Below, piece by piece: positions 26,884-29,223 of a stretch of 64,000 bases of DNA (the stretch's first letter is position 1; each line of letters opens with the position of its first letter). This stretch comes from a virus (Duplodnaviria; Heunggongvirae; Uroviricota; Caudoviricetes): IMG/VR virus record IMGVR_UViG_2740892229_000011; one strand, written 5' to 3'. Made by a program: the position numbers and the translations under genes. Below the pieces are notes generated by a model. It saw only the letters and a list, made by a program, of their open reading frames with translations. It made no database searches and had not been told where the DNA came from.

Positions 26884-29223
26884 ATGGCAAAAGGAAAATC
26901 CGCACTGGCACTTGCTCTGAAAAAGAAAATCGGTAGCAACGACGAAATTCAGAAAGTAACTCATTGGATTGATACAGGCTTTCCACCGTTAAACAAAGCT
27001 ATTTCTGGTCGTTACGATGGCGGCTTCCCATGTGGTCGTATCGTCGAAGTATTCGGTCCTCCAAGTGCAGGGAAATGTGTTACCGCAGACACCATGCTGC
27101 TGACGGAGCGTGGAATGGTAACAGTGAAAGAGTTGTTTGAGATTGAAGGGTACAAAGCGACATGCACTACTCGCGATGTAGAGCATAACGTTGGACTCAT
27201 CAATGAAAATGGCGTGATAGAGAAGACCTCACACCTGACATGGAACAACCGTCGCAAATTCAAGCGTATTAAGCTGGCATCAGGCGGTTATATCGAGGCT
27301 ACGTTCCGTCACCCAATCCGTGTGGTTGACGACTTAGGTAATGTCGTCTGGCGACATGCTGAAAAAATCAGTGTAGGCGACACGATTCCTTCAATGGTTG
27401 GCACACATCAATTCGGCGATCAGCACCTGGATGCCAATATCGCAAAACTGATGGGCTATTTAATTGCTGACGGATACGTGGCCTCTGAAAATTCAGTGAA
27501 TTTTTCTAACACAGATCCTTTCATCAAGGATGAGTACTACCGCCTCATTTCGCTGGTATCAGACAAGATGCCAGTTACGAGAAAACATAACGGCTCGGAA
27601 GACCATGTGCTGTTTAGCAAAGAGGTGCGTTCGCTGCTTTTTAAAGAATATGGTCTGGAGTATGAGAAAGCTGCTGGCAAGCAGGTTCCGTTGAGTGTGC
27701 GTCGCGCCAATAGCGAGGCTCAAATTGCATTCCTTCGCGGCTACTTTGAGCTGGAATGCCACGTCAATGATGGTCGCTGCATTGAGGTTGTGAGCGCGAG
27801 TGGGCTGCTGCTACAGCAAATTCGCCTCATGCTCCTGAATCTGGGGATTACGTCAACTATCTCTGAAAAACACGTCGCGGGTTATGAAAATACATATTAC
27901 CGGCTGTCATTCAGTGGCTCTAATTACGACCTTTTTCTGTCAACGATTGGTTTCGAATCTCCGGCACGTTTATCAGTGGCAACCAAACGGGACATTGGTT
28001 TTGACCGCACTTACTCAGGCTATGTTCCGCACATCAGCGGCTTAGTGAAATCACTCTACGAGTCGCTCACCAAGACCACCCGTGAAGACTACGCTCTGGT
28101 AGACCACGTTATTGGCCGCGGCGATCGTGTCGGAATAGACAAACTGCGAGAAATCTATGTCTCCTTCATTGGCAGAAAGAATCGTTTTAACGAGCATCTG
28201 TTTGCACAACTGGCAGCGGTAATTGGCTCTAACTTGTTCTACGACGAAGTCGTGGCTATTGAGGAAGGTGAAGCACCAACGTTCGACGTAGCGATGCCGG
28301 AAACACACTCTTTCTGGTCTAACGGGATTATCAGCCACAACACATTCCTTGCAACAGCAGCGATGATCTCCGCTCAAAAACAAGATGGTCTGGCGGTATT
28401 CCTCGATCATGAAAACAGTTTTGACGTTGGCCTGGCTGTAGCCAATGGCCTGAACGCAGATGAGGATGACGGTCAGTGGGTATACAAGCAGCCAGATACC
28501 TTCGAAGACTCTGTAGAGTTGATCGGCACAATACTTAAATTGGTTCGTGATGAAGAGCTTATCCCCGAATCAGCACCTATCTGTATCGTGGCTGACTCAC
28601 TTGCGTCTATGGTTCCGAACTCCAAAGCCGAGAAGTTCGAAAAGATGGCTGAAGGCACTGCCAAAGACAAAGATCAGCTAAACATGAACGACAATACGGC
28701 ACTGGCTCGTGCGACAAGTGCGAACTTCCCTACTCTGGCTTTGTGGGCACGCAAATACAACGCCTGCATCATCTTCTTGAATCAGGTTCGCACAAAAATC
28801 GGTGTAATGTTTGGCGACCCTACTACGTCGCCAGGTGGAGATTCACCGAAGTTCTACGCTTCTGTACGTATCCGTCTTGGTGCATCGGTGATGAAGGATG
28901 GTAAAGAGAAGATCGGCCAGGACGTAGGCGCAGAATGCATCAAAAACAAAGTTGCACCACCGTATGGCAAATGCACCTGGAAATTCTACTTCGATCCTAC
29001 TCGTGGCCTCGACGTTATCGAATCGCTCGTCGAGTACATGCTGGAAGAAGGATACCTGCCAAAGAACGCCAGCGGGCGAGTTGAAATTGGTGACAAGAAA
29101 TACACCAAATCGCAGATCGTCGAGATGTATCGGGAGAAGCCACTGGCTGAAATCATTGCGGCTTTGCAGGCAATCGACGACCGAAGAGCAAAAGACAACC
29201 CCACCGAGTCAGTAGAAGAGTAA
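26884..29223 (+). CDS. RecA-like recombinase interrupted by an intein in the P-loop
   Basis: Extein joins to [15 protein letters not shown] ... [36 protein letters not shown], closely matching RecA core motifs; extein about 357 aa. Confidence 0.85.
   Translation: [779 protein letters not shown]
27076..28341 (+). other. Intein (422 aa) with LAGLIDADG homing-endonuclease domain inside the RecA Walker A motif
   Basis: Starts with Cys (CVTADTML), block B TxxH (ATFRHPIRV), LAGLIDADG motifs ([23 protein letters not shown]), ends SHN followed by Thr +1. Confidence 0.8.

Follow-up and report, generated by a model that had tools for sequence, protein, structure and literature searches.

A LAGLIDADG intein in the P-loop of a RecA-family recombinase of SSU5-like phage-plasmids, and its apparently recent homing

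The window (the whole 64,000-nt stretch of viral DNA analysed here, IMG/VR record IMGVR_UViG_2740892229_000011) belongs to an SSU5-like phage-plasmid and carries, at 26884..29223 on the plus strand, an open reading frame (ORF) of 779 amino acids plus stop, in which the ORF list and Pfam together reveal a RecA-family recombinase split by an intein. An AAGGAG Shine-Dalgarno sequence lies 5' of its ATG, and the frame starts directly after the stop of a small upstream ORF. The same coding sequence is annotated in the E. coli plasmid NZ_CP027358.1 as WP_001051807.1. The precursor reads VFGPPSAGK / CVTADT ... / TFLATAAM (extein / intein / extein). The insert comprises amino acids 65-486 (422 aa, 1266 nt, 27076-28341), its deletion leaves a protein of 357 aa, and the base composition is unchanged across it. 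An earlier note on this DNA, made from the sequence alone, had proposed a 422-aa LAGLIDADG intein within the Walker A P-loop, and with this the motifs, the coordinates and the Pfam and NCBIfam profiles all agree. RecA (PF00154) matches the precursor in two pieces on either side of the insert (E=3.3e-36; 125.5 bits, past the gathering threshold of 27), LAGLIDADG_3 (PF14528) scores over its curated cut-off (E=2.4e-17), Intein_splicing (PF14890) reaches 44.3 bits against a cut-off of 35.8 (E=2.1e-11), and the profiles of the N-terminal and C-terminal intein regions (TIGR01445 and TIGR01443) are both over their cut-offs. These motif and profile matches are far beyond chance.

The two halves of the host protein, both on the plus strand, align with E. 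coli RecA. The N-extein (aa 1-64, 26884..27075) ends in the Walker A part GPPSAGK (27055-27075), and the C-extein (28342..29223), whose first residue is Thr+1 (28342-28344), contains the Walker B motif ICIVADS (28579-28599) and an L2-type loop (28780-28839). The insert thus lies between Lys64 and Thr (GPPSAGK/T), and this threonine is the Walker A Thr and the splice nucleophile at once. When the precursor is aligned to RecA and to intein families, the extein is continuous through the P-loop, with GPPSAGKT standing against GPESSGKT; the spliced 357-aa sequence aligns unbroken through Walker A with the structures of E. coli and other RecA proteins, and the best E-value against a single-copy RecA improves from about 8e-27 with the precursor to about 6e-35 with the spliced form. 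The claim that removal of the insert restores a 357-aa protein with RecA core motifs is therefore borne out by the deletion itself, by the alignment with RecA and by an identical protein encoded in the phage-plasmid CMS-2020a, to which we return below.

As to what kind of recombinase this is, membership of the RecA family follows from the PF00154 score together with the presence of Walker A, Walker B and the L2-type loop. Against the profile of orthologous bacterial RecA (the TIGR02012 equivalog), the spliced extein reaches only 153.7 bits where 325.3 are required, and its best named PHROG is phrog_97, the UvsX-like recombinase. Hence it is a phage recombinase of the RecA family and not an orthologue of cellular RecA. 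Recombinase genes with about 70-73% identity in the region of the P-loop also occur in 27 Acinetobacter plasmids of about 108 kb (for example CP137931.1) and in some Moellerella plasmids, so that this recombinase family reaches phage-plasmid-like elements beyond Enterobacteriaceae.

The insert itself (27076..28341, plus strand) has the anatomy of a class-1 intein with a nested LAGLIDADG homing endonuclease, as indicated by the profiles, by an AlphaFold2 model and by the CMS-2020a allele. It had been described as starting with Cys, containing TxxH and two LAGLIDADG motifs, and ending in HN followed by Thr, and all of these are present. Cys1 of block A, the nucleophile of the first splicing step, is encoded at 27076..27078 and is invariant in the 9 sampled intein-bearing alleles, which together with 3 intein-less alleles were compared base by base. 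Block B, T76-F-R-H79 (the TxxH motif, 27301..27312), is invariant in the sampled alleles too. The first LAGLIDADG motif, LMGYLIADG (intein aa 125-133, 27448..27474), carries the catalytic Asp132, likewise invariant, and aligns with FLGYLIADG of the V-ATPase intein (7qsu/7qss) and with PI-PkoII. The second, LRGYFELEC (intein aa 220-228, 27733..27759), is aligned with FLEGYFIGDGD of PI-PkoII (2cw7), which places E227 on the acidic catalytic position; this glutamate is invariant in the sampled alleles and conserved in the relatives P0005, P0006 and P0009. There is accordingly one acidic catalytic residue per motif, as in two-motif LAGLIDADG enzymes. Blocks F and G, with D404, H421 and N422 (28279..28341), are recognised by TIGR01443 and by conservation among the relatives, in which PTFDV..P.THSF is near-invariant at the C-terminal end. 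C1, T76, H79, D132, E227, D404, H421 and N422 are invariant in the 6 alleles compared for these residues, and 9/9 intein-bearing alleles have the same residues at the splice junctions, Thr+1 included. The insert therefore combines a block A Cys, a block B TxxH, a block F Asp, a His-Asn end and a +1 Thr with a Hint fold and with an in-frame position from which its removal restores a conserved host protein. A second cysteine, Cys30 (KATCTT, 27163-27165), stands 29 residues past Cys1; it is kept in the relatives P0004-P0007 and in the RecA intein of Bacillus phage fHSPT3, and is not found in P0012, P0013 or the helicase intein of Twillingate.

The predicted fold leads to the same assignment. An AlphaFold2 model of the intein, built from a 10-sequence alignment, has a mean predicted local distance difference test score (pLDDT) of 79 and a predicted template modelling score (pTM) of 0.84. 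Its best Foldseek match in PDB is the TliVMA intein (7qss, E=7.5e-19, template modelling score 0.68), with PI-PfuI (1dq3), PI-TkoII (2cw7) and PI-SceI (1vde) as further matches; the mini-inteins of P. horikoshii RadA and M. tuberculosis RecA match the splicing domain of the model, and I-DmoI its endonuclease domain. Sequence profiles and predicted fold thus concur in a Hint plus LAGLIDADG intein. The VMA-type inteins (TliVMA, PI-PfuI, PI-TkoII, PI-SceI) share the Hint and two-motif LAGLIDADG fold, and the motifs align, but the identity is just 9-21%, their hosts are archaeal or yeast proteins, and the present intein has an extra helical region at about aa 311-385.

Alleles without the insert exist, and they lack it precisely. 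In the phage-plasmid CMS-2020a, recA has 1074 nt, without exactly the 1266-nt insert; it differs from the extein DNA of the window by 6 nt, all of them synonymous, so that its protein is the predicted spliced product. The sequence of this empty site is GGTCCTCCAAGTGCAGGGAAA|ACGTTCCTTGCAACAGCAGCG. Uninterrupted alleles are also present in SSU5 and in Klebsiella phage vB_Kpn_1825-KPC53. At the level of sequence, the CMS-2020a allele gives the best evidence for the insert being a discrete mobile unit and for the spliced protein as the functional form.

To describe the distribution we used counts from BLAST of PLSDB and of complete E. coli genomes; a word-indexed protein search with the intein gave 13 proteins and missed the full-length cluster, and it was not used for this purpose. 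PLSDB holds 856 plasmids with this recA region. The site is uninterrupted in 571 of them and contains the intein in 248, at 90-100% nucleotide identity (240 at a coverage of at least 80%). The intein is therefore present in about 29% of these recA alleles, the sporadic distribution expected of a homing endonuclease. The 248 carriers are mainly Escherichia (123), Klebsiella (71), Enterobacter (41) and Citrobacter (6) plasmids. When organism counts are compared, none of 63 Yersinia plasmids with the recA region has the intein, and Salmonella contributes a single intein-bearing plasmid in PLSDB. Among 5426 complete E. coli genomes, 120 contain the intein, every one on a plasmid and none on the chromosome.

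The comparison of alleles separates the history of the intein from that of its host gene. The exteins fall into three lineages, an E. coli type, a Klebsiella type and an SSU5 type, with 82-85% mutual identity and a synonymous divergence (dS) above 1. In all three the intein is present in some alleles and missing from others, and within a lineage the exteins of these two kinds of allele are 96.8-99.4% identical to each other. Across lineages, however, the inteins are 96.8-99.8% identical, with the exception of one variant at 92-95%; they are far closer to one another than are the exteins that host them, as horizontal transfer predicts. One such pair is Klebsiella p4727 and Enterobacter FUJ80067, whose inteins differ at 2 of 1266 nt (99.8% identity) while their exteins are 85% identical. 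Between the window and a Klebsiella allele the identity is 78% over the N-extein, 97% over the intein and 83% over the C-extein, and the shift is confined to a few nucleotides at each intein junction. The junction codons are GGG AAA/ACA in 9/9 intein-bearing alleles, whereas the empty alleles have GGG AAA/ACG in the E. coli type and GGT AAA/ACC in the Klebsiella and SSU5 types. It thus seems that a few nucleotides of flank travel with the intein, as would be expected of co-conversion during double-strand-break repair. The intein, including its endonuclease domain, is under purifying selection: the ratio of non-synonymous to synonymous substitution rates (dN/dS) is about 0.1, namely 0.09-0.16 over the intein and 0.09-0.14 over the LAGLIDADG domain, and it is somewhat higher (0.17-0.31) in the helical region at intein aa 311-385. 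Cross-lineage identity, junction codons and selection are apparently the signature of recent homing. The suggestion in the earlier note that the endonuclease may drive homing into intein-less alleles is hence supported by population data, that is by presence and absence in all three lineages, near-identity of the intein, junction codons and purifying selection.

Given these observations, we consider it likely, with a probability of roughly 0.85, that a class-1 LAGLIDADG intein splits the P-loop of the RecA-family recombinase of SSU5-like phage-plasmids, splices itself out and homes into empty alleles. For splicing, cleavage and the route of transfer we rely on the sequence and on what is known of the family, and the course of events would be as follows. 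The 779-aa precursor would be incapable of normal ATP binding because its P-loop is split. Cys1 would form the N-terminal thioester, Thr+1 would attack it to give a branched intermediate by transesterification, cyclisation of Asn422 with the help of His421 would release the intein, and an O-to-N acyl shift would restore the peptide bond, so that the products would be a 357-aa recombinase with GPPSAGKT and the free intein. The latter would be a LAGLIDADG endonuclease, with D132 and E227 as its acidic residues, and would cut the uninterrupted P-loop coding sequence of an intein-less recA. The occasion for such cleavage would arise when two related phage-plasmids are in one cell, and repair from the intein-bearing copy would then copy in the intein plus a few flanking nucleotides.

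Several points weigh against this reading. The pattern of junction codons comes from 9 + 3 alleles, and sampling or shared ancestry could explain it. What splicing demands of the fold could account for part of the purifying selection seen in the endonuclease domain. The AlphaFold2 model is poor over the last 15 residues, where pLDDT is below 50. Finally, the intein of E. coli 2014C-3307 (NZ_CP027369.1; locus L012, 1306-3645) is 94.9% identical to that of the window, while its extein is 99.3% identical. This variant implies either that intein diversity is older than a single sweep or that there was intragenic recombination, so that one recent sweep is not the whole history. Its pattern is opposite to that seen between lineages, and points to separate invasions or to replacement of one intein by another.

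It can be asked whether the intein is more than selfish, that is, whether it acts as a conditional switch which gates the recombinase through its splicing in response to single-stranded DNA (ssDNA), redox state or metal ions. This idea is compatible with splicing and homing as set out above, and it comes from analogy. The mini-inteins of P. horikoshii and T. sibiricus RadA are at the P-loop of a homologous recombinase, and their splicing has been found experimentally to depend on temperature and ssDNA (PMC5790916). They share with our intein the P-loop site and a match of the Hint fold (4e2t), but they are archaeal and have no endonuclease, so that they are comparable in the splicing domain only. 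The splicing of mycobacterial DnaB inteins is modulated by oxidative stress, zinc and reactive chlorine species, according to three reports (PMC6195587, PMC7360933, PMC8557812), and the present intein has, besides Cys1, a second Cys (aa 30, KATCTT) that is conserved in several relatives. One could thus imagine that the intein persists in about a third of SSU5-like phage-plasmids through conditional splicing, for example with ssDNA as the trigger or with oxidation or zinc as a block at Cys1, and if this were true the recombinase would come into action only in certain situations, such as induction or DNA damage. We nevertheless find such a role doubtful. Selfish homing is enough to account fully for its recent horizontal spread, and about two thirds of the plasmids that are otherwise similar do without the intein, so that it is not required.

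A second alternative accepts splicing but takes the endonuclease to be inactive, and attributes the patchy distribution to ordinary homologous recombination or module exchange between co-resident phage-plasmids. Phage-plasmids do recombine extensively, as PMC10879196 states, and decay of the endonuclease is known in this intein family. Inteins of bacterial-type RecA proteins from genomes and metagenomes (P0007, P0008, P0009, P0012 and P0013), which are 27-45% identical to ours and are inserted at the same P-loop site, GPE(S/G)SGK/C...HN/TT, include three (P0007, P0012 and P0013) that no longer have the first LAGLIDADG motif; P0013 is also without most of the endonuclease domain. Judged by their sequences, these three resemble more advanced stages of the homing cycle within this intein family. 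P0004, a relative of the SSU5-like recombinase with an intein at the same site, falls within the same range of identity; the exteins of these relatives differ from ours in having the RecA C-terminal domain PF21096. The phage-plasmid intein, however, retains its two catalytic acidic residues, without variation among the sampled alleles, and the low dN/dS over the LAGLIDADG domain given above also speaks against an inactive enzyme. General recombination, moreover, would usually carry longer flanks, while the junctions here are abrupt and only about 3-9 nt of flank appear to be co-transferred, so that double-strand-break repair fits better. We therefore regard an inactive endonuclease as improbable and prefer homing.

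That the insert does not splice at all, and that the interrupted recA is a dead gene on about 30% of plasmids, seems very improbable to us even though the recombinase may be dispensable in the presence of host RecA and clearly broken copies exist (an IS1 insertion in CP059946.1 and a truncation in E. albertii p3RM15115), since the intein is kept at high coverage and nucleotide identity in 240 PLSDB plasmids of several genera, 9/9 translated alleles are open over the full 2.3-kb frame, every splicing residue is conserved, close intein-bearing exteins differ by 22:1 and 7:0 synonymous to non-synonymous changes, and the intein is under purifying selection, which is not expected of a dead insert. 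Conserved splice residues, open frame and selection pattern led us to reject both a pseudogene and a non-intein insert.

The P-loop position is far from unusual. An intein inserted between the invariant Walker A Lys and a nucleophilic Thr occupies the "classic" P-loop position, which is widespread among bacteria, archaea and phages (PMC5050341, PMC4760082), and RecA is among the commonest bacterial intein hosts (PMC4760082). Outside the SSU5 group the closest relatives in phage records are full-length inteins with 31-34% identity over 422 aa, found in RecA of Bacillus phage fHSPT3 and in a UvsW-like helicase of Twort/Twillingate-type phages of Staphylococcus, Listeria, Enterococcus and Bacillus. 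Read base by base, the inteins of fHSPT3 RecA (GKPGGGK/C...NHN/STLA) and of the Twillingate helicase (STNGGK/C...NHN/TEIA) are both inserted at the same spot after the Walker A Lys. These inteins of Firmicutes phages (Herelleviridae) resemble ours in Cys1, in two LAGLIDADG motifs and in the ...THSF...HN end, but they belong to virulent phages of Gram-positive hosts, their identity to ours is about one-third, and the helicase is not homologous to RecA. In Twillingate the intein has already been annotated as such ("intein-containing DNA helicase precursor"). The RecA intein of M. tuberculosis (PI-MtuI), the first bacterial intein described (PMC5050341), also interrupts RecA and is spliced out to give active RecA, but its insertion site is another, and its resemblance to ours is limited to weak fold similarity in the Hint domain (2in0, E about 1e-3). 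Indeed the profile NF007072 ("intein-containing recombinase RecA", of the mycobacterial type) gives 100.8 bits against a cut-off of 1024, and this match is limited to the extein, at profile positions up to 253, which likewise means that the insertion site differs from the mycobacterial one. The inteins of the mycobacteriophage large terminase (TerL1-a) and of DnaB, MCM and RFC occupy the same classic P-loop site, but in other host proteins, and no close sequence relationship to them was found.

The identification of the carrier rests on three observations. The 2340-nt recA gene of the window shows 100% identity to the 110-kb E. coli plasmid NZ_CP027358.1, the identity to Escherichia phages PhiR41_1 and Cyrano amounts to 98-99%, and the window has its gene order in common with Salmonella phage SSU5; it is thus an SSU5-like phage-plasmid. 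The recombinase is part of a replication and recombination module which runs from DnaE through a small protein (UvsY-like according to the annotators of Cyrano), the single-stranded DNA-binding protein SSB (24582-25610), a 5'-3' exonuclease (25620-26615) and a small conserved ORF (26609-26881), the upstream neighbour of the recombinase, the latter three all on the plus strand. SSB and the exonuclease are named after PHROGs and the annotations of Cyrano, SSU5 and NZ_CP027358.1, and the small ORF likewise after PHROGs and annotation. RepB, SbcD, SbcC and NrdA follow farther downstream. The dnaE and nrdA families are frequent intein hosts; in the window both dnaE (20389-23907) and nrdA (39473-41788) are uninterrupted. 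A tblastn search of the window with the intein returned the self-match only, and thus no second Hint or LAGLIDADG sequence.

The element is ordinary, a textbook class-1 LAGLIDADG intein at a textbook P-loop site that is present in hundreds of public plasmid records, and general knowledge of inteins is unchanged by it. Its value is practical, in the correction of annotation, in a native intein system on E. coli plasmids and in a marker of exchange. The need for the first is easy to illustrate. In NZ_CP027358.1 (locus L013, 12001-14340) the whole 779-aa precursor is named "LAGLIDADG family homing endonuclease"; most records use this name or "hint domain-containing protein", others use "recombinase RecA", some RefSeq copies already have "intein-containing recombinase RecA", and the PHROGs entry for the precursor is phrog_9666, "unknown function". 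Such inconsistent naming hides the recombinase, so that surveys of phage-plasmid gene content can miss it. We found no publication in the searchable literature that describes an intein in SSU5-like phage-plasmids. E. coli has been treated as free of native inteins. The intein of its plasmids could serve as a natural system for the study of homing and splicing within this species, given that alleles 99.4% identical with and without the intein exist and that related phage isolates are represented in the collection, PhiR41_1 and Cyrano with the intein and SSU5 without it. Further, because the intein is near-identical across recA lineages of Escherichia, Klebsiella, Enterobacter and Salmonella plasmids, it marks recent encounters and DNA exchange, and this use as a tracer concerns phage-plasmids of clinical relevance.

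A few copies are broken. In CP059946.1 (E. coli plasmid p2; locus L009, 1932-2702) a 771-bp insertion inside the intein, at about intein nt 431, disrupts the precursor. It is flanked by an 8-bp target duplication, AATTTTTC, and its longest ORF resembles an IS1 transposase, which we take it to be by our own recognition. In NZ_CP162200.1 (E. coli pSTK39-3-E-B, 136 kb; locus L008, 3001-4265) there is a 3' remnant, made up of the last 383 nt of the intein and the C-extein at 89% identity; it adjoins several insertion sequence (IS) fragments and is annotated as a 415-aa "recombinase". Such partial matches could be mistaken for a natural mini-intein in plasmids, an idea which we rejected, as the IS-flanked remnant of NZ_CP162200.1 and the IS1 insertion of CP059946.1 are both breakage. 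The intein-bearing recA of CP043243.1 (E. albertii p3RM15115, 62 kb; locus L011, 1306-3076) ends at nt 1771 and is followed by unrelated sequence; its intein is a 94% variant, and the plasmid, which has only about half of the normal length, gives the impression of a phage-plasmid in decay.

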